A stretch of DNA of 45,913 bases, taken from Escherichia coli. Its GTDB lineage: Bacteria > Pseudomonadota > Gammaproteobacteria > Enterobacterales > Enterobacteriaceae. The number at the start of each line of letters is the position of its first letter. The first letter of the stretch is position 1. The notes under the pieces are model-generated. The model saw nothing but the letters and a program-made list of their open reading frames with translations, ran no database searches and was not told the origin of the DNA. The stretch lies in assembly GCF_003334785.1 (NCBI RefSeq), contig NZ_QOWV01000023.1. One strand, written 5' to 3'. A program made the translations under genes and the position numbers. This document shows, piece by piece, positions 1-45,079 of this stretch.

Positions 1-632
1 GCCTGCCGGGGCAGCAGTATGATGAGGAGTCCGGCCTGTATTACAACCGCCACCGCTATTATGACCCGCTGCAGGGGAGGTATATCACTCAGGATCCGAT
101 TGGGCTGAAGGGGGGATGGAATTTTTATCAGTATCCGCTGAATCCGGTTCAGTATATAGATTCAATGGGACTGGCATCAAAATATGGACACTTAAATAAT
201 GGCGGATATGGAGCGAGACCCAACAAACCGCCTACGCCCGATCCAAGTAAATTGCCGGACATAGCGAAACAATTAAGACTGCCATATCCTATTGACCAGG
301 CCAGTAGTGCGCCTAATGTTTTCAAAACATTCTTCAGAGCATTAAGCCCTTACGACTACACACTGTATTGCAGGAAGTGGGTAAAACCAAATCTGACTTG
401 TACGCCACAGGATGATTCCCAGTATCCAGGGATGGATACAAAGACAGCAAGTGATTACCTGCCACAGACAAATTGGCCAACAACTCAATTACCACCAGGA
501 TATACTTGTGCAGAACCCTATTTATTCCCAGACATTAATAAACCCGATGGGCCAGCAACAGCAGGGATAGATGATTTGGGTGAAATTTTAGCTAAGATGA
601 AACAGAGAACATCGAGAGGAATAAGAAAATGA
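1..632 (+). CDS. ybfO: Rhs-family protein, C-terminal fragment (5' end outside window): end of the Rhs core with a DPIGL motif (nt 93-107) followed by a ~175-aa variable C-terminal tip
   Basis: Frame continuous from nt 3 ([57 protein letters not shown]...), a typical Rhs core terminus; stop overlaps the next ORF start (ATGA at 629-632). Symbol from remembered K-12 synteny (orphan rhs next to ybfC). Confidence 0.8.
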
Positions 633-1198
633 AAAGAGTTTTGTTCTTTTTGCTGATGATATTTGTTAGTTTTGGTGTTATAGCTGATTGCGAAATACAA
701 GCTAAAGATCATGATTGTTTTACTATTTTCGCTAAGGGTACTATTTTTTCCGCGTTTCCTGTCTTAAATAATAAAGCCATGTGGAGATGGTATCAGAATG
801 AGGACATCGGTGAGTATTATTGGCAAACAGAACTGGGTACATGTAAAAATAATAAATTCACACCAAGCGGGGCGAGACTCTTAATTCGCGTCGGGTCACT
901 ACGCCTTAATGAAAATCATGCCATCAAAGGAACGTTGCAGGAGTTGATAAATACAGCAGAAAAAACGGCGTTTCTCGGCGATCGGTTTAGAAGTTATATA
1001 AGAGCGGGTATCTATCAAAAAAAGAGCAGTGATCCAGTTCAGTTGTTGGCAGTCCTTGATAATTCAATCATGGTAAAATATTTTAAAGATGAGAAACCAA
1101 CTTATGCTCGAATGACAGCACATCTCCCGAACAAAAATGAGTCTTACGAATGTTTAATAAAGATACAGCATGAACTAATTCGTAGTGAAGAGAAATAA
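629..1198 (+). CDS. ybfC: Small protein with N-terminal hydrophobic signal-like segment, immediately downstream of the Rhs tip; candidate cognate immunity protein
   Basis: 189-aa ORF, start overlaps the rhs stop by 4 nt; N-terminus [21 protein letters not shown] is signal-peptide-like. Immunity role inferred from the Rhs toxin/immunity gene-pair paradigm. Confidence 0.8.
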
Positions 1199-1280
1199 AA
1201 TCTCTTCCTGAGAAAACAAATTAATCATTGTGAAAAATTATATAACTCATGGAATAGGTGTTTATTTTGCGTTCCATTTG

Positions 1281-2570
1281 CAGGGAAAGATCACGTAACG
1301 CTACTTTTTTGTACTAAATAATTCGCATTTTATGTTTAAAAATTGAGATATTCCTTATTACCTAAAGCTGTTTTTCATAGCTTATACATGATCAAATACT
1401 CCTTACATAAATAAGGTGAACAAATGGAACTTAAAAAATTGATGGAACATATTTCTATTATTCCCGATTACAGATAAGCCTGGAAAGTAGAGCATAAATT
1501 GTCAGGCATCCTACTATTGACTATTTTTGCCGTTATTTCTGGTGCAGAAAGTTGGGAAGATATAGAGGATTTCGGGGAAACACATCTCGATTTCTTGAAG
1601 CAATATGGTGATTTTGAAAATGGTATTCCTGTTCACGATACTATTGCCAGAGTTGTATCCTGTATCAGTCCTGCAAAATTTCACGAGTGCTTTATTAACT
1701 GGATGCGTGATTGCCATTCATCAAATGATAAAGACGTCATTGCAATTGATGGAAAAACGCTCCGGCACTCTTATGACAAGAGTCGCCGCAGGGGAGCGAT
1801 TCATGTCATTAGTGCGTTCTCAACAATGCACAGTCTGGTCATCGGGCAGATCAAGACGGATAAGAAATCCAATGAGATCACAGCTATCCCTGAACTTCTT
1901 AACATGCTGGATATTAAAGGAAAAATCATCACAACTGATGCGATGGGTTGCCAGAAAGATATTGCAGAGAAGATACAAAAACAGGGAGGTGATTATTTAT
2001 TCGCTGTAAAAGGAAACCAGGGGCGGCTTAATAAAGCCTTTGAGGAAAAATTTCCGCTGAAAGAATTAAATAATCCAGAGCATGACAGTTACGCAATGAG
2101 TGAAAAGAGTCACGGCAGAGAAGAAATCCGTCTTCATATTGTTTGCGATGTCCCTGATGAACTTATTGATTTCACGTTTGAATGGAAAGGACTGAAGAAA
2201 TTATGCGTGGCAGTCTCCTTTCGGTCAATAATAGCAGAACAAAAGAAAGAGCCAGAAATGACGGTCAGATATTATATCAGTTCTGCTGATTTAACCGCAG
2301 AAAAGTTCGCCACAGCAATCCGAAACCACTGGCACGTGGAGAATAAGCTGCACTGGCGTCTGGACGTGGTAATGAATGAAGACGACTGCAAAATAAGAAG
2401 AGGAAACGCCGCAGAATTATTTTCAGGGATACGGCACATCGCTATTAATATTTTAACGAATGATAAGGTATTCAAGGCAGGGTTAAGACGTAAGATGCGA
2501 AAAGCAGCCATGGATAGAAACTATCTCGCGTCAGTCCTTGCGGGGAGCGGGCTTTCGTAATCTTTCCCTG
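1281..2570 (+). mobile_element. H-repeat (ISAs1-family-like) element, copy 1, ~1290 bp with imperfect 15-bp terminal inverted repeats
   Basis: Left end CAGGGAAAGATCACG (1281-1295); right end CGTAATCTTTCCCTG (2556-2570), whose reverse complement is CAGGGAAAGATTACG. Contains one transposase-like ORF. Confidence 0.7.
1424..2560 (+). pseudogene. ybfL: H-repeat-associated transposase-like gene inactivated by an in-frame TAA at 1475-1477; otherwise full length (~378 codons)
   Basis: ATG at 1424 ([17 protein letters not shown]) runs into TAA where copy 2 has CAA; the frame then stays open to 2560 (ORF track 1499..2560). Symbol ybfQ/ybfL from memory, assignment between the two uncertain. Confidence 0.75.
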
Positions 2571-5551: not shown

Positions 5552-5660
5552 TGCCGGATGCGGCGTGAACGCCTTATCCAGCCTACAAATTTGTGCAAAT
5601 TCAATAAATTGCAGGAAATACGTAGGCCTGATAAGACGCGTCAAGCGTCGCATCAGGCAT
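5552..5660. repeat. REP/BIME repetitive extragenic palindromes between convergent phr and dtpD
   Basis: GCCGGATGCGGCGTGAACGCCTTATCCAGCCTACA and GTAGGCCTGATAAGACGCGTCAAGCGTCGCATCAGGCA are canonical E. coli REP units. Confidence 0.75.
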
Positions 5661-17783: not shown

Positions 17784-19067
17784 TTAACGCTTGATATCGC
17801 TTTTAAAGTCGCGTTTTTCATATCCTGTATACAGCTGACGCGGACGGGCAATCTTCATACCGTCACTGTGCATTTCGCTCCAGTGGGCGATCCAGCCAAC
17901 GGTACGTGCCATTGCGAAAATGACGGTGAACATGGAAGACGGAATACCCATCGCTTTCAGGATGATACCAGAGTAGAAATCGACGTTCGGGTACAGTTTC
18001 TTCTCGATAAAGTACGGGTCGTTCAGCGCGATGTTTTCCAGCTCCATAGCCACTTCCAGCAGGTCATCCTTCGTGCCCAGCTCTTTCAGCACTTCATGGC
18101 AGGTTTCACGCATTACGGTGGCGCGCGGGTCGTAATTTTTGTACACGCGGTGACCGAAGCCCATCAGGCGGAAAGAATCATTTTTGTCTTTCGCACGACG
18201 AACAAATTCCGGAATGTGTTTAACGGAGCTGATTTCTTCCAGCATTTTCAGCGCCGCTTCGTTAGCACCGCCGTGCGCAGGTCCCCACAGTGAAGCAATA
18301 CCTGCTGCGATACAGGCAAACGGGTTCGCACCCGAAGAGCCAGCGGTACGCACGGTGGAGGTAGAGGCGTTCTGTTCATGGTCAGCGTGCAGGATCAGAA
18401 TACGGTCCATAGCACGTTCCAGAATCGGATTAACTTCATACGGTTCGCACGGCGTGGAGAACATCATATTCAGGAAGTTACCGGCGTAGGAGAGATCGTT
18501 GCGCGGGTAAACAAATGGCTGACCAATGGAATACTTGTAACACATCGCGGCCATGGTCGGCATTTTCGACAGCAGGCGGAACGCGGCAATTTCACGGTGA
18601 CGAGGATTGTTAACATCCAGCGAGTCGTGATAGAACGCCGCCAGCGCGCCGGTAATACCACACATGACTGCCATTGGATGCGAGTCGCGACGGAAAGCAT
18701 GGAACAGACGGGTAATCTGCTCGTGGATCATGGTATGACGGGTCACCGTAGTTTTAAATTCGTCATACTGTTCCTGAGTCGGTTTTTCACCATTCAGCAG
18801 GATGTAACAAACTTCCAGGTAGTTAGAATCGGTCGCCAGCTGATCGATCGGGAAACCGCGGTGCAGCAAAATACCTTCATCACCATCAATAAAAGTAATT
18901 TTAGATTCGCAGGATGCGGTTGAAGTGAAGCCTGGGTCAAAGGTGAACACACCTTTTGAACCGAGAGTACGGATATCAATAACATCTTGACCCAGCGTGC
19001 CTTTCAGCACATCCAGTTCAACAGCTGTATCCCCGTTGAGGGTGAGTTTTGCTTTTGTATCAGCCAT
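17784..19067 (-). CDS. gltA: Citrate synthase (type II, hexameric)
   Basis: 427-aa ORF recognised as citrate synthase ([13 protein letters not shown]...). Confidence 0.97.
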
Positions 19068-19775
19068 TTAAGGTCTCCTTAGCGCCTTATTGCGTAAGAC
19101 TGCCGGAACTTAAATTTGCCTTCGCACATCAACCTGGCTTTACCCGTTTTTTATTTGGCTCGCCGCTCTGTGAAAGAGGGGAAAACCTGGGTACAGAGCT
19201 CTGGGCGCTTGCAGGTAAAGGATCCATTGATGACGAATAAATGGCGAATCAAGTACTTAGCAATCCGAATTATTAAACTTGTCTACCACTAATAACTGTC
19301 CCGAATGAATTGGTCAATACTTCCACACTGTTACATAAGTTAATCTTAGGTGAAATACCGACTTCATAACTTTTACGCATTATATGCTTTTCCTGGTAAT
19401 GTTTGTAACAACTTTGTTGAATGATTGTCAAATTAGATGATTAAAAATTAAATAAATGTTGTTATCGTGACCTGGATCACTGTTCAGGATAAAACCCGAC
19501 AAACTATATGTAGGTTAATTGTAATGATTTTGTGAACAGCCTATACTGCCGCCAGGTCTCCGGAACACCCTGCAATCCCGAGCCACCCAGCGTTGTAACG
19601 TGTCGTTTTCGCATCTGGAAGCAGTGTTTTGCATGACGCGCAGTTATAGAAAGGACGCTGTCTGACCCGCAAGCAGACCGGAGGAAGGAAATCCCGACGT
19701 CTCCAGGTAACAGAAAGTTAACCTCTGTGCCCGTAGTCCCCAGGGAATAATAAGAACAGCATGTGGGCGTTATTC
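19068..19775. promoter_or_regulatory. Divergent gltA / sdhCDAB promoter-regulatory region (~0.7 kb)
   Basis: Long AT-rich intergenic spacer between divergent gltA and sdhC; individual sites were not mapped from sequence. Confidence 0.6.
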
Positions 19776-20165
19776 ATGATAAGAAATGTGAAAAAACAAA
19801 GACCTGTTAATCTGGACCTACAGACCATCCGGTTCCCCATCACGGCGATAGCGTCCATTCTCCATCGCGTTTCCGGTGTGATCACCTTTGTTGCAGTGGG
19901 CATCCTGCTGTGGCTTCTGGGTACCAGCCTCTCTTCCCCTGAAGGTTTCGAGCAAGCTTCCGCGATTATGGGCAGCTTCTTCGTCAAATTTATCATGTGG
20001 GGCATCCTTACCGCTCTGGCGTATCACGTCGTCGTAGGTATTCGCCACATGATGATGGATTTTGGCTATCTGGAAGAAACATTCGAAGCGGGTAAACGCT
20101 CCGCCAAAATCTCCTTTGTTATTACTGTCGTGCTTTCACTTCTCGCAGGAGTCCTCGTATGGTAA
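19776..20165 (+). CDS. sdhC: Succinate dehydrogenase cytochrome b556 large membrane subunit
   Basis: 129-aa product from [15 protein letters not shown]; ORF track begins 15 nt upstream. Confidence 0.95.
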
Positions 20166-20506
20166 GCAACGCCTCCGCATTAGGACGCAATGGCGTACAT
20201 GATTTCATCCTCGTTCGCGCTACCGCTATCGTCCTGACGCTCTACATCATTTATATGGTCGGTTTTTTCGCTACCAGTGGCGAGCTGACATATGAAGTCT
20301 GGATCGGTTTCTTCGCCTCTGCGTTCACCAAAGTGTTCACCCTGCTGGCGCTGTTTTCTATCTTGATCCATGCCTGGATCGGCATGTGGCAGGTGTTGAC
20401 CGACTACGTTAAACCGCTGGCTTTGCGCCTGATGCTGCAACTGGTGATTGTCGTTGCACTGGTGGTTTACGTGATTTATGGATTCGTTGTGGTGTGGGGT
20501 GTGTGA
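20159..20506 (+). CDS. sdhD: Succinate dehydrogenase hydrophobic membrane anchor subunit
   Basis: 115-aa ORF overlapping sdhC end and sdhA start (TGATG at 20504-20508). Confidence 0.95.
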
Positions 20507-23005: not shown

Positions 23006-23126
23006 CCGTAGGCCTGATAAGACGCGCAAGCGTCGCATCAGGCAACCAGTGCCGGATGCGGCGTGAACGCCTTATCCGGCCTACAAGTCATTACCCGTAG
23101 GCCTGATAAGCGCAGCGCATCAGGCG
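23006..23126. repeat. REP/BIME cluster (three REP units) between sdhB and sucA
   Basis: CCGTAGGCCTGATAAGACGCGCAAGCGTCGCATCAGGCA, GCCGGATGCGGCGTGAACGCCTTATCCGGCCTACA and CCGTAGGCCTGATAAGCGCAGCGCATCAGGCG. Confidence 0.75.
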
Positions 23127-27338: not shown

Positions 27339-27360
27339 TAGTTTAAGTTTCACCTGCACT

Positions 27361-27625
27361 GTAGACCGGATAAGGCATTATCGCCTTCTCCGGCAATTGA
27401 AGCCTGATGCGACGCTGACGCGTCTTATCAGGCCTACGGGACCACCAATGTAGGTCGGATAAGGCGCTAGCGCCGCATCCGACAAGCGATGCCTGATGTG
27501 ACGGTTAACGTGTCTTATCAGGCCTACGGGGACCACCAATGTAGGTCGGATAAGGCGCAAGCGCCGCATCCGACAAGCGATGCCTGATGTGACGTTTAAC
27601 GTGTCTTATCAGGCCTACGGGTGAC
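27361..27625. repeat. Tandem BIME array of REP pairs: ~90-bp unit, ~2.4 copies
   Basis: Units at 27402-27490, 27491-27581 and partial 27582-27621, each GCCTGATG(C/T)GACG...GTCTTATCAGGCCTACGGG...CCACCAATGTAGGTCGGATAAGGCGC.AGCGCCGCATCCGACAAGCGAT. Confidence 0.8.
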
Positions 27626-32667: not shown

Positions 32668-35301
32668 ATGAAAGCAGTATCTCGCGTTCACATCACCCCG
32701 CATATGCACTGGGATCGAGAGTGGTATTTCACCACCGAAGAGTCACGTATTCTGCTGGTCAATAATATGGAAGAGATCCTGTGCCGACTGGAACAGGACA
32801 ACGAATACAAATATTACGTACTCGACGGGCAAACGGCGATCCTCGAAGATTATTTCGCGGTGAAACCGGAAAACAAAGACCGTGTGAAGAAACAGGTAGA
32901 AGCCGGCAAGTTGATTATCGGCCCCTGGTATACCCAGACCGATACCACGATTGTTTCTGCGGAATCCATCGTCCGTAATCTGATGTACGGAATGCGTGAC
33001 TGCCTCGCGTTTGGCGAGCCGATGAAAATAGGTTATTTACCAGATTCCTTTGGCATGTCCGGGCAACTGCCGCATATCTACAATGGATTTGGCATTACCC
33101 GCACCATGTTCTGGCGCGGATGTTCGGAGCGCCACGGTACTGATAAAACCGAGTTTTTGTGGCAAAGCAGTGACGGTAGCGAAGTGACGGCGCAGGTGCT
33201 GCCGCTGGGCTACGCCATCGGTAAGTACTTACCTGCCGACGAAAACGGATTACGTAAACGCCTCGACAGTTATTTTGACGTGCTGGAAAAAGCGTCTGTA
33301 ACCAAAGAGATTTTGCTGCCGAATGGGCATGACCAGATGCCATTGCAGCAAAATATCTTCGAAGTGATGGATAAGCTACGTGAGATCTACCCTCAACGTA
33401 AGTTTGTGATGAGCCGCTTTGAAGAGGTATTTGAGAAGATCGAAGCGCAGCGAGATAATCTGGCAACCCTGAAAGGGGAATTTATTGATGGCAAATATAT
33501 GCGCGTGCATCGCACCATCGGTTCTACGCGTATGGATATCAAAATTGCCCACGCGCGTATTGAAAATAAGATTGTTAATCTGCTGGAACCGCTGGCAACA
33601 CTGGCCTGGACGTTGGGTTTTGAATACCACCACGGCTTGCTGGAGAAAATGTGGAAAGAGATCTTAAAAAATCATGCCCACGACAGTATCGGCTGCTGCT
33701 GTAGTGACAAAGTTCATCGCGAAATCGTCGCCCGCTTCGAACTGGCTGAAGACATGGCGGATAATCTGATTCGTTTCTACATGCGCAAAATTGCCGACAA
33801 CATGCCGCAGAGCGACGCCGACAAACTCGTCCTGTTTAACCTGATGCCCTGGCCGCGTGAAGAAGTTATCAACACCACTGTGCGGCTGCGCGCCAGCCAG
33901 TTTAATTTGCGGGACGATCGCGGTCAGCCTGTACCGTATTTTATTCGCCATGCCCGTGAGATCGATCCAGGCCTAATCGATCGGCAAATAGTTCATTACG
34001 GTAATTACGATCCCTTTATGGAGTTTGATATACAGATCAACCAGATTGTCCCTTCTATGGGCTATCGCACGCTTTATATCGAAGCGAATCAGCCTGGCAA
34101 CGTAATTGCGGCAAAAAGTGACGCTGAAGGGATACTGGAAAATGCTTTCTGGCAAATTGCGCTCAATGAGGATGGTTCTCTGCAACTGGTAGATAAAGAC
34201 AGCGGTGTGCGCTATGACCGGGTATTGCAAATTGAAGAAAGCTCTGATGATGGTGATGAATATGACTATTCACCCGCAAAAGAAGAGTGGGTAATTACCG
34301 CAGCGAACGCGAAACCGCAATGCGATATTATTCATGAAGCCTGGCAGAGCAGGGCTGTTATCCGCTATGACATGGCAGTGCCGCTCAATTTGTCAGAACG
34401 CAGCGCCCGGCAATCCACTGGCAGAGTAGGGGTGGTGTTGGTTGTCACTCTTAGTCATAACAGCAGGCGTATTGATGTGGATATCAATCTTGATAACCAG
34501 GCTGACGATCATCGCCTTCGTGTCCTGGTCCCTACACCTTTTAACACCGACAGTGTTCTGGCAGATACGCAGTTTGGTTCGCTAACGCGCCCCGTGAACG
34601 ACAGTGCAATGAACAACTGGCAGCAAGAAGGCTGGAAAGAAGCGCCGGTTCCGGTATGGAATATGCTCAACTATGTTGCCTTACAGGAAGGGCGTAACGG
34701 CATGGCTGTCTTTAGCGAAGGGTTACGTGAATTTGAAGTCATCGGTGAAGAGAAGAAAACCTTTGCCATTACGTTGCTGCGTGGCGTGGGCTTACTGGGC
34801 AAAGAAGATCTGCTTTTAAGGCCTGGGCGGCCTTCGGGAATTAAAATGCCAGTCCCGGACTCACAACTACGTGGTCTGCTTTCTTGTCGCCTAAGTTTAT
34901 TGAGTTATACCGGTACGCCAACCGCCGCTGGTGTAGCTCAGCAGGCGCGAGCATGGCTGACTCCAGTACAGTGTTACAACAAAATCCCATGGGATGTGAT
35001 GAAGCTCAACAAAGCCGGATTCAACGTGCCGGAAAGTTATAGTTTGTTGAAAATGCCCCCAGTGGGATGCCTGATAAGCGCACTTAAGAAAGCTGAAGAC
35101 CGACAAGAAGTGATTTTACGGCTGTTTAATCCGGCTGAATCAGCAACCTGTGATGCGACTGTTGCTTTCAGTCGCGAGGTGATTTCTTGCTCAGAAACGA
35201 TGATGGATGAACACATTACCACCGAGGAAAATCAAGGTTCAAATCTATCGGGGCCTTTTTTACCCGGCCAGTCACGGACGTTCAGTTACCGGCTTGCCTG
35301 A
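32668..35301 (+). CDS. mngB: Alpha-mannosidase (GH38) acting on mannosyl-D-glycerate 6-phosphate
   Basis: 877-aa ORF recognised as GH38 alpha-mannosidase. Confidence 0.92.
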
Positions 35302-35799
35302 ATAGCAATCAAACCGAAGCCACATATGCGCGGCCAGATTGTTGACAAAGGGCGCTTTGTTCATGCCGGATACGGCATGAACGCTTTATTCGGTCTACAA
35401 AAGCAGGCAAATTCAATATATTGCAGAGATGATGTAGACACTGGCAAGCGTAGCGCATCAGGTAATTTTGCGTTTATCTTCACTCTCAAGCCACGTATAT
35501 GTGGCTTTATTTTTAACAAAATAATAACCCTGGGTGAGTTAATTATAATATAATTATAAGTTAACTAAATGTTAATATTGGCGGGGTGGATTTATGCCTT
35601 TATTAGTAATCCTGAAACTCTGCGTCGTATTAGCCAGTGACCAAAAAAAGAATTAAGGTCAACCGTGCTGTTTTTGCTTCGTCTCTTTTTATCTTTAATT
35701 GCCAACCGAAACTAATTTCAGCCTTATAACTCACACATTTTAAACATAAATGTCACTAAAGTTACCTTATTGAAACATGATTAACATAATTTGTAGGAA

Positions 35800-35813
35800 T
35801 TGATATTTATCAA
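35800..35813. promoter_or_regulatory. FNR-type binding site (perfect TTGAT-N4-ATCAA) upstream of cydA
   Basis: TTGATATTTATCAA read directly from the sequence. Confidence 0.6.
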
Positions 35814-35851
35814 TGTATAAGTCTTGGAAATGGGCATCAAAAAGAGATAAA

Positions 35852-35865
35852 TTGTTCTCGATCAA
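35852..35865. promoter_or_regulatory. Second FNR-type site (TTGTT-N4-ATCAA), 52 bp downstream of the first
   Basis: TTGTTCTCGATCAA; centre-to-centre spacing of 52 bp fits a tandem FNR arrangement. Confidence 0.5.
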
Positions 35866-36147
35866 ATTGGCTGAAAGGCGGTAATTTAGCTATAAATTGA
35901 TCACCGTCGAAAAATGCAAATTTGCTTCAACAAAAACCTGTTTATTGTAAGGATTTTGCGGCGTAATATATACGTGGGATCAATTTGAGTTTTTATTAAC
36001 ATGTTTGCAACCTTTCTTTACGCCGTTTTTGTGTGCATTCACATGGTATGATGAAAGTGTTCAAACAAATTTCTATTGGGGCATGCGTGTGACCCTTTCT
36101 AACGGGGTTCACTCTCGGAGTCTTCATGCGATGAGCAAGGAGTCATG

Positions 36148-43732: not shown

Positions 43733-44278
<546 letters not shown>

Positions 44279-44287
44279 GAGAATTGC

Positions 44288-45079
44288 ATGAGCAGTAACT
44301 TCAGACATCAACTATTGAGTCTGTCGTTACTGGTTGGTATAGCGGCCCCCTGGGCCGCTTTTGCTCAGGCACCAATCAGTAGTGTCGGCTCAGGCTCGGT
44401 CGAAGACCGCGTCACTCAACTTGAGCGTATTTCTAATGCTCACAGCCAGCTTTTAACCCAACTCCAGCAACAACTTTCTGATAATCAATCCGATATTGAT
44501 TCCCTGCGTGGTCAGATTCAGGAAAATCAGTATCAACTGAATCAGGTCGTGGAGCGGCAAAAGCAGATCCTGTTGCAGATCGACAGCCTCAGCAGCGGTG
44601 GTGCAGCGGCGCAATCAACCAGCGGCGATCAAAGCGGTGCGGCGGCATCAACGACGCCGACAGCTGATGCTGGTACTGCGAATGCTGGCGCGCCGGTGAA
44701 AAGCGGTAATGCAAACACGGATTACAATGCAGCTATTGCGCTGGTGCAGGATAAATCCCGCCAGGATGACGCAATGGTGGCATTTCAGAATTTCATCAAA
44801 AATTACCCTGATTCAACTTACCTGCCAAACGCCAATTATTGGCTGGGTCAGTTAAACTACAACAAGGGTAAAAAAGATGATGCGGCGTACTATTTTGCTT
44901 CGGTAGTGAAAAACTATCCGAAGTCACCAAAGGCTGCAGATGCGATGTTTAAAGTCGGCGTCATCATGCAGGACAAAGGTGACACCGCAAAAGCGAAAGC
45001 CGTATACCAGCAGGTTATCAGTAAATACCCTGGTACTGATGGCGCTAAACAGGCACAAAAACGTCTGAACGCGATGTAA
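44288..45079 (+). CDS. cpoB: Cell-division coordinator CpoB (TPR-repeat periplasmic protein)
   Basis: 263-aa ORF with signal peptide, coiled-coil and C-terminal TPR-like repeats; formerly ybgF. Confidence 0.93.
   Translation: MSSNFRHQLLSLSLLVGIAAPWAAFAQAPISSVGSGSVEDRVTQLERISNAHSQLLTQLQQQLSDNQSDIDSLRGQIQENQYQLNQVVERQKQILLQIDSLSSGGAAAQSTSGDQSGAAASTTPTADAGTANAGAPVKSGNANTDYNAAIALVQDKSRQDDAMVAFQNFIKNYPDSTYLPNANYWLGQLNYNKGKKDDAAYYFASVVKNYPKSPKAADAMFKVGVIMQDKGDTAKAKAVYQQVISKYPGTDGAKQAQKRLNAM

Follow-up and report, generated by a model that had tools for sequence, protein, structure and literature searches.

Why the divergent genes gltA and sdhC of Escherichia coli are separated by 708 bp, and which parts of this distance are selected, is the question raised by the present locus. 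The original prediction, made from the sequence alone, described the spacer as an unusually long, non-coding control region between the citrate synthase and succinate dehydrogenase operons, at which respiratory and carbon signals are integrated and where the sdhC leader serves as a small-RNA target. These claims are taken up here for a window of 45,913 nucleotides (45.9 kb), i.e. the whole stretch of DNA that was analysed, to which all positions refer.

The divergent arrangement and the 708-bp spacer (19068-19775) were confirmed by the open reading frames and by the annotation of E. coli K-12 MG1655 (NC_000913.3), with which the gene ends agree, and 708 of the 708 spacer bp are identical to MG1655. 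NCBI PGAP places the sdhC start at an in-frame ATG at 19761 (134 aa), which would shorten the spacer to 693 bp; both ATGs, at 19761 and 19776, and all sequence between them are invariant across species. At an identity of at least 95%, the spacer was found in all of the complete E. coli genomes searched (5426/5426); among these, one genome holds two spacer copies, and one spacer copy resides on a plasmid. The window in its entirety shows 99.95% identity to MG1655, from which it differs at positions 1-1280 and by one extra repeat unit near 27.5 kb, and coordinates from 1281 to 27541 are converted to those of NC_000913.3 by adding 735401. Positions 1-1280, the ybfO/ybfC rhs-associated region, are not colinear with MG1655, while window positions 381-1660 match the MG1655-equivalent 1-1280 at 98.4% identity; due to the mismatch at its left end, the window must originate from a different E. 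coli strain. In the sucB-sucC spacer (27352-27621), REP/BIME-type units are repeated in tandem every ~90 bp; there are three of them, MG1655 having one fewer, and two of the three score as Rfam family naRNA4. Other Rfam matches at gathering score within the window comprise naRNA4 (REP-type) in the sdhB-sucA spacer (23011-23081), the CpoB/ybgF thermometer (44179-44317), and the ES036 small RNA downstream of phr (5587-5629).

The description as unusually long applies to the window, where the gltA-sdhC gap ranks second: the mngB-cydA gap is longer with 846 bp, and all other gaps amount to at most 389 bp. Across 79 other Enterobacteriaceae species, the spacer is likewise long, with 637-1159 bp and, in most of them, 647-660 bp. 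A long gltA-sdhC spacer is therefore the family norm, which E. coli exceeds by 56 bp through a repeat relic. Because the sequence matches published data, the gene identities, the start sites as well as the ArcA and CRP sites were accepted, and the spacer is very probably the control region already known from E. coli K-12, which serves gltA and sdhCDAB-sucABCD in opposite directions and is composed of three functional zones. The locus itself is already known, well characterised and ordinary; the comparative details are new. These are the conservation of the spacer relative to synonymous sites, the probable ERIC origin of 56 bp that carry a predicted Spot 42 site, the finding that ybgU is not constrained as a protein, a second hot spot of ERIC insertion, which other genera show in their gltA leader, and a candidate upstream RyhB site. 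The features are compiled in the table.

Features of the gltA-sdhC region, with window positions and the basis of each assignment
Feature	Position	Strand	Remarks
gltA ORF	17784-19067	-	ATG at 19067
gltA 5' leader from distal promoter	19068-19366	-	299 nt; start deduced from Park et al. 2013
Predicted Spot 42 site in gltA leader (GCUCUGUACCC)	19188-19201	-	-134..-121 from gltA ATG
ybgV (b4768), 10-aa small ORF, GTG start	19257-19289	-	NC_000913.3 annotation
ybgU (b4735), 35-aa small ORF	19273-19380	-	NC_000913.3 annotation
ArcA-P binding site 1, three direct repeats (TTGTAACAACTTTGTTGAATGATTGTCAAATT)	19403-19434		Exact match, Park et al. 2013
CRP site CGTGAcctggaTCACT	19466-19481		Centre -83.5 from sdhC start; consensus scan and literature
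ArcA-P binding site 2, four repeats, overlaps sdhC -35 element	19486-19539		Exact match, Park et al. 2013
sdhC sigma-70 promoter, TTGTAA-17 bp-TATACT	19519-19547	+	Sole promoter-like match in region
sdhC 5' untranslated leader	19557-19775	+	219 nt; start deduced from Park et al. 2013
Predicted extra RyhB site (CUGGAAGCAGUGU and extension)	19615-19642	+	-161..-134 from sdhC ATG
Apparent internally deleted (short) ERIC relic	19693-19748	+	56 nt; 3-nt boundary ambiguity, 19690-19745 equivalent
Predicted Spot 42 site in sdhC leader (ACCUCUGUGCCC)	19721-19732	+	-55..-44; right arm of ERIC relic
Candidate Hfq site, A-R-N-rich AAUAAUAAGAAC	19746-19757	+	Adjoins translation start; read from sequence
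Weak RyhB and RybB complementarity over sdhC initiation region	19751-19770	+	Duplex prediction
sdhC ORF	19776-20165	+	ATG at 19776; MIRNV..., 129 aa, as in NC_000913.3
Conservation, core	19263-19556		Median identity 83% (76 species)
Conservation, sdhC leader	19557-19692		Median identity 85% (76 species)
Conservation, translation initiation region	19749-19775		Median identity 100% (76 species)
Conservation, gltA leader			Median identity 67%, gaps counted as mismatches (76 species)

The three zones follow from the two outermost start sites, which were derived from published ArcA positions relative to these starts: according to the ArcA ChIP-seq supplements of Park et al. 2013, ArcA site 1 covers -68..-37 of the gltA start, and the 54-nt, four-repeat ArcA site 2 covers -71..-18 of the sdhC start. 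The distal gltA start is thereby located at 19366, 299 nt before the ATG, and the sdhC start at 19557, 219 nt before the ATG. Hence, the spacer does not consist of 708 bp of promoter, as only the 190-bp core (19367-19556) lies between the outermost starts and ~518 of the 708 bp are transcribed as gltA leader (299 nt) or sdhC leader (219 nt). The columns of the sdhC promoter are 98-100% conserved and its position fits the start at 19557, which is situated 10 nt past the -10 hexamer and thus slightly far. A proximal gltA start is reportedly positioned near 19263 (-196; Wilde & Guest 1986), and a TTTAAT hexamer at 19277-19272 is consistent with this putative start.

Consensus scans of the spacer for transcription factor sites, with the expectation taken from dinucleotide shuffles, yielded four ArcA-box matches against 0.5 expected, which coincide with the published sites. 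In an arcA mutant, sdhCDAB-sucABCD is derepressed 133.5-fold and gltA 7.1-fold (Park et al. 2013). The only match to TGTGA-N6-TCACA with at most two mismatches is CGTGAcctggaTCACT, whose column conservation is 0.82; taken alone, this count is not above chance, and the literature describes a single CRP site common to the gltA and sdhC promoters. Scans of the spacer for FNR, Fur, IHF, Cra and PdhR stayed at or below chance, and CpxR-like half-sites were more numerous than expected (5 against 1.2) and poorly conserved. Since the consensus scans do not rise above chance on their own, the CRP and Fur assignments are those of the literature, according to which Fur binds at gltA under anaerobiosis while the effect of FNR is probably indirect, via ArcA. 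As the scan results were at or near chance or the sites poorly conserved, no new site was called for FNR, Fur, IHF, Cra, PdhR, CRP or CpxR. With regard to the regulators envisaged at the outset, ArcA, CRP and Fur do act here according to the literature and FNR lacks a convincing site; from the scans proposed for these four, ArcA alone emerged as enriched. The 190-bp core combines the sdhC sigma-70 promoter and the distal gltA promoter with the ArcA and CRP sites; in the proposed mechanism, two multi-repeat ArcA-P sites would repress both operons in the absence of oxygen, and one CRP site would activate both when glucose is absent.

To what extent the spacer is selected was assessed by comparison across the family. 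The locus was taken from 80 species, 79 of which also contained the gltA start, and the spacers were aligned; identity is given as the median to E. coli over 76 species, with 4-fold degenerate sites in the neighbouring codons of gltA and sdhC, taken from the same genomes, as reference. These sites show a median identity of 55% (76 species). Because the identity of the spacer is far above this value, nearly the whole of it is under purifying selection, the gltA leader being conserved except for 19108-19140 and the other unconserved patch of the alignment being 19690-19748. This strong purifying selection acts on the DNA or RNA itself, and not at the protein level.

The latter point bears on the small ORFs, for which the search proposed along with the original prediction was productive. 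The spacer is not non-coding in the strict sense: both ybgU and ybgV are annotated within it, and the product of each has been observed as a protein tagged on the chromosome (YbgU, VanOrsdel et al. 2018; YbgV, Weaver et al. 2019), the evidence for ybgU translation consisting of tagged-protein immunoblots and ribosome profiling (VanOrsdel 2018 and Weaver 2019). In addition, the N-terminus of ybgU (MRKSY.V.LSP) and the GTG start of ybgV are widely kept, so that the spacer could be imagined to be long and conserved mainly on account of functional small proteins YbgU and YbgV, and thus to be coding DNA in reality. On the contrary, in many species and genera the ybgU frame is shortened to 9-23 codons or has ATT, ATA or GTT in place of its ATG, while the DNA over the broken ORFs is still ~85-90% conserved. 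Its pooled pN/pS is 0.96, and differences at the three codon positions (560/420/492) show no third-position excess. An intact ybgU ORF under purifying selection was hence not found across the relatives. The peptide encoded from the conserved GTG of ybgV varies between 1 and 30 aa among species, its ORF lies within the putative proximal gltA promoter, and both ORFs together span only 124 of the 708 bp. Protein function as the main cause of length and conservation is therefore highly improbable; ybgU is not conserved as a protein, a finding that is new here and that cautions against treating the annotated ybgU and ybgV as conserved proteins.

Expression of the two ORFs may be viewed in relation to the promoters. 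The ATG of ybgU (19380) overlaps a perfect minus-strand TATAAT (19384-19379) and precedes the reported distal start of gltA (19366) by 14 nt. It would follow that ybgU requires a longer and rarer transcript than ybgV, which would be carried on the distal-promoter transcript; this may explain why ybgV is the better-expressed of the two (Weaver et al.).

Conservation at the level of RNA could also be caused by structure, if the leaders held a riboswitch-like element or an attenuator. The sdhC leader is 85% conserved over 19557-19692, the gltA leader is long, and the latter folds slightly better than its shuffles (z = -1.65), which makes it only mildly more stable. Against this stands the sdhC leader with z = +0.35, a search of Rfam over 18500-20500 that returned zero matches at E <= 1, and a repeat search over 19000-19850 that yielded nothing, without any inverted repeat of at least 12 nt. 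Moreover, the sole terminator-like site in the region is on the opposite (minus) strand, its count being at chance level, and conservation is too high for an informative covariation test. With neither a curated family match nor folding beyond chance, a structured cis-regulatory RNA is an unlikely explanation for the conservation of the leaders.

The designation of the sdhC leader as a small-RNA target was well founded, as it is published for RyhB, Spot 42 and RybB, and needs to be extended to the gltA leader, since gltA is likewise listed as a validated Spot 42 target. For pairing predictions, the RyhB, Spot 42 and RybB sequences were obtained from NC_000913.3, and 30-nt windows were compared with the small-RNA seed regions and with shuffles. 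Whole-length RNA duplex predictions had given artefactual long-range pairings that were no better than shuffles, and were abandoned in favour of the 30-nt windows. The exact pairing registers given here are predictions.

In the sdhC leader, a duplex of 12 base pairs is predicted between ACCUCUGUGCCC and Spot 42 nt 4-15, with a dG of -24.3 versus -14.4 +/- 2.2 for shuffles. This is the sole strong Spot 42 complementarity of the sdhC leader (19721-19732), and it lies within the repeat relic. According to the literature, Spot 42 binds the sdhC mRNA ahead of its translation initiation region and brings Hfq to an AU-rich site in that region; the columns of the candidate Hfq site AAUAAUAAGAAC are 100% conserved. 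In the gltA leader, GCUCUGUACCC and Spot 42 nt 4-13 would form ten contiguous Watson-Crick pairs (dG -20.4 versus -13.9 +/- 1.9 for shuffles), and the columns of this site are invariant across 79 species. Pairing of Spot 42 nt 20-62 with the leaders was not beyond shuffles. Both divergent mRNAs hence carry a predicted site for one and the same Spot 42 seed, which is ancient in gltA and appears to be repeat-derived in sdhC.

Concerning iron control, a 13-bp complement of the RyhB seed, CUGGAAGCAGUGU, is found at 19615-19627, and extended pairing reaches a predicted dG of -30 versus -18.1 +/- 2.6 for shuffles, by which this site ranks second among 30,590 windows on both strands of the 45.9-kb window. 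It is kept in Escherichia, Citrobacter, Salmonella, Lelliottia and Enterobacter, and not in Klebsiella, Kluyvera and Buttiauxella, so that this candidate upstream RyhB site may contribute additional control by iron in some of the genera. At the sdhC initiation region itself, neither the 5' end of RybB (dG -15.2) nor RyhB (dG -17.6) pairs beyond shuffles; the target sequence 19751-19770 is invariant across species.

In the proposed mechanism, the sdhC leader would allow translational repression by small RNAs, with RyhB and RybB acting at the translation initiation region, and with Spot 42 pairing at approximately -55..-44 and recruiting Hfq to AAUAAUAAGAAC at the start codon. The gltA leader carries the invariant predicted Spot 42 site as well as the two short translated ORFs, ybgU and ybgV.

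The remaining question concerns the additional length of the E. coli spacer, 708 bp compared to ~652 bp elsewhere, which is accounted for by 56 bp at 19693-19748. Judged by its sequence, this segment looks like an internally deleted ERIC element within the sdhC leader. In the 79 other species, the corresponding site, one and precise, is empty in 59, carries the short form in 14 and a ~121-nt long form in 6; together with the present window, the short form is represented by 15 aligned sequences. Short inserts of 54-59 nt occur in Escherichia, Salmonella, Citrobacter and Intestinirhabdus, whereas the full-length insert of ~121 nt occupies the identical site in six species (Lelliottia, Huaxiibacter, Klebsiella spallanzanii and others), and the short forms correspond to the two ends of the long insert. 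In a search of 28 Gb, the long insert had one to five matches per E. coli genome, all of them between genes, without annotation and with an identity of ~70% (best E = 1e-6), and the long elements of the six species agree with ERIC copies at 85-95 of 123-124 positions (E = 1e-6). By computation, the dispersed E. coli copies matched by the long insert hold the exact ERIC1R and ERIC2 primer sequences.

The descent of the E. coli copy is traced through intermediates. The short forms of Citrobacter and Salmonella share 76-93% of the left arm and 63-84% of the right arm with the long forms (63-93% overall), and the arms of the long forms are 68-77% identical to genuine ERIC copies. The E. coli relic is only 58-75% identical to the ERIC arms and devoid of the ERIC core; its assignment therefore depends on the Citrobacter, Salmonella and Lelliottia intermediates, through which homology is inferred. 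It is predicted to fold as an imperfect hairpin with a nested-stem architecture that is alike in E. coli, Salmonella, Citrobacter and Lelliottia.

The low identity of the E. coli copy, its missing core, and the stability of its hairpin, which is not beyond shuffles (z ~ -1.0), could be held in favour of another origin: 19693-19748 might have belonged to the ancestral leader and have disappeared from most genera, in which case its Spot 42 complementarity would be a coincidence. Yet the empty-site junction in 59 of the 79 species is clean, GGAAGGAAA(C/T)AATAAGAACAGC, and outgroups such as Serratia, Tenebrionibacter and LSJC7 likewise have an empty site, GGAAGGAAA(C/T)AATAAG. The element of ~121 nt at the exact site in six species, its match to repeats with the ERIC1R and ERIC2 sequences, and the close resemblance between the long forms and the short ones of Citrobacter and Salmonella also argue for insertion, and the Spot 42 dG (-24) is stronger than that of shuffles by 4.5 standard deviations. 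A further argument comes from the gltA leader, where other genera show a second hot spot of ERIC insertion at a distance of ~40-60 nt from the ATG (equivalent to 19107-19130). Two Buttiauxella species (L072 and L074) possess a 129-bp insert there, which includes the ERIC core and shows single mismatches to the ERIC1R and ERIC2 primers; full-length elements at this hot spot were found at L072, L074, L012, L020 and L022, and short relics in Salmonella, C. sedlakii and Lelliottia, while E. coli is empty. Loss of an ancestral leader is thus very unlikely, and the segment is best regarded as the remnant of an inserted ERIC element.

The unconserved patch 19108-19140 of the E. coli gltA leader was also considered as an ERIC relic and rejected, as E. 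coli has the basal length at this position and the insertions occur only in other genera. Within the relic of the sdhC leader, an ArcA-like direct repeat (GGTTAACTTTCTGTTA, minus strand, 1 mismatch) is present at 19707-19723, ~+150 from the sdhC start, and coincides with a putative CpxR site proposed in PMC8831704; because it lies inside the ERIC relic, this ArcA/CpxR-like repeat is lineage-specific. The best full-length ERIC copies of E. coli (L087 601-725, L088 601-724) reside directly upstream of the mobH relaxase gene, and thus inside a mobile element.

A connection between the relic and Spot 42 is suggested by the distribution of predicted pairing energies: the median Spot 42-sdhC dG is -22.5 in species with the short ERIC form, -12.1 in those with the long form and -6.1 in those with the empty site. 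The relic would hence have given the Escherichia/Citrobacter/Salmonella group its sdhC Spot 42 site. An ERIC element would have entered the leader 28 nt before the start codon of sdhC and lost its core, and its right arm would have become the docking site, which would render Spot 42/Hfq repression of sdh a lineage-specific innovation. This scenario is advanced tentatively, as one that could well turn out to be wrong. No statement that places the sdhC Spot 42 site in a repeat relic was found in the literature searched, a limited library. If true, enterics such as Klebsiella, Enterobacter and Kluyvera, in which the site is empty, would be devoid of the Spot 42-sdh arm of catabolite repression, and gltA would keep its ancient, invariant Spot 42 site. 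Confirmation would explain the unusual, distant Spot 42 pairing site on sdhC and would predict species differences in the catabolite repression of the TCA cycle. The comparison thereby reveals which parts of the 708 bp are selected, namely nearly all of them and at the DNA/RNA level, and supplies a concrete, testable case of a dispersed repeat (ERIC) that provides a small-RNA target site in an mRNA of central metabolism.

Among known systems, the closest is the gltA/sdhCDAB-sucABCD region of E. coli K-12, which is the same locus with 100% identity and in agreement as to start sites, CRP site and neighbouring genes; no difference exists, this being the same region in another E. coli strain. It was reportedly treated earlier by Wilde & Guest 1986, Park, Tseng & Gunsalus 1995, Shen & Gunsalus 1997 and Nam et al. 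2005. Within the window, the upstream region of cydAB (35211-36056) is a comparable respiratory control region, similarly long (846 bp) and with several sites for ArcA, by which it is controlled, but is not divergent, unlike gltA-sdhC. Three ArcA ChIP-seq sites are assigned to this mngB-cydA spacer by Park et al. 2013. With the non-canonical Spot 42/Hfq repression reported for sdhC (Desnoyers & Masse 2012), the present leader shares the strong complementarity far upstream of the start codon (-55..-44) and the A-R-N-rich tract at the initiation region that this mechanism requires, whereas the pairing register given here is a prediction of our own. The relic resembles ERIC/IRU repeats in general by its imperfectly palindromic sequence, by its location between genes in transcribed DNA, by being present or absent and occurring in long and short forms at one precise site among related genomes, and by the ~70-77% identity of its orthologous long copies to copies with exact ERIC primer sequences. 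Such repeats are said to have been dealt with by Sharples & Lloyd 1990, Hulton et al. 1991, De Gregorio et al. 2005 and Wilson & Sharp 2006. Unlike these, the E. coli copy has diverged and lost its central ~65 nt including the primer-targeted core, is fixed in all 5426 genomes, and seems to have acquired a new role as a target of small RNA.
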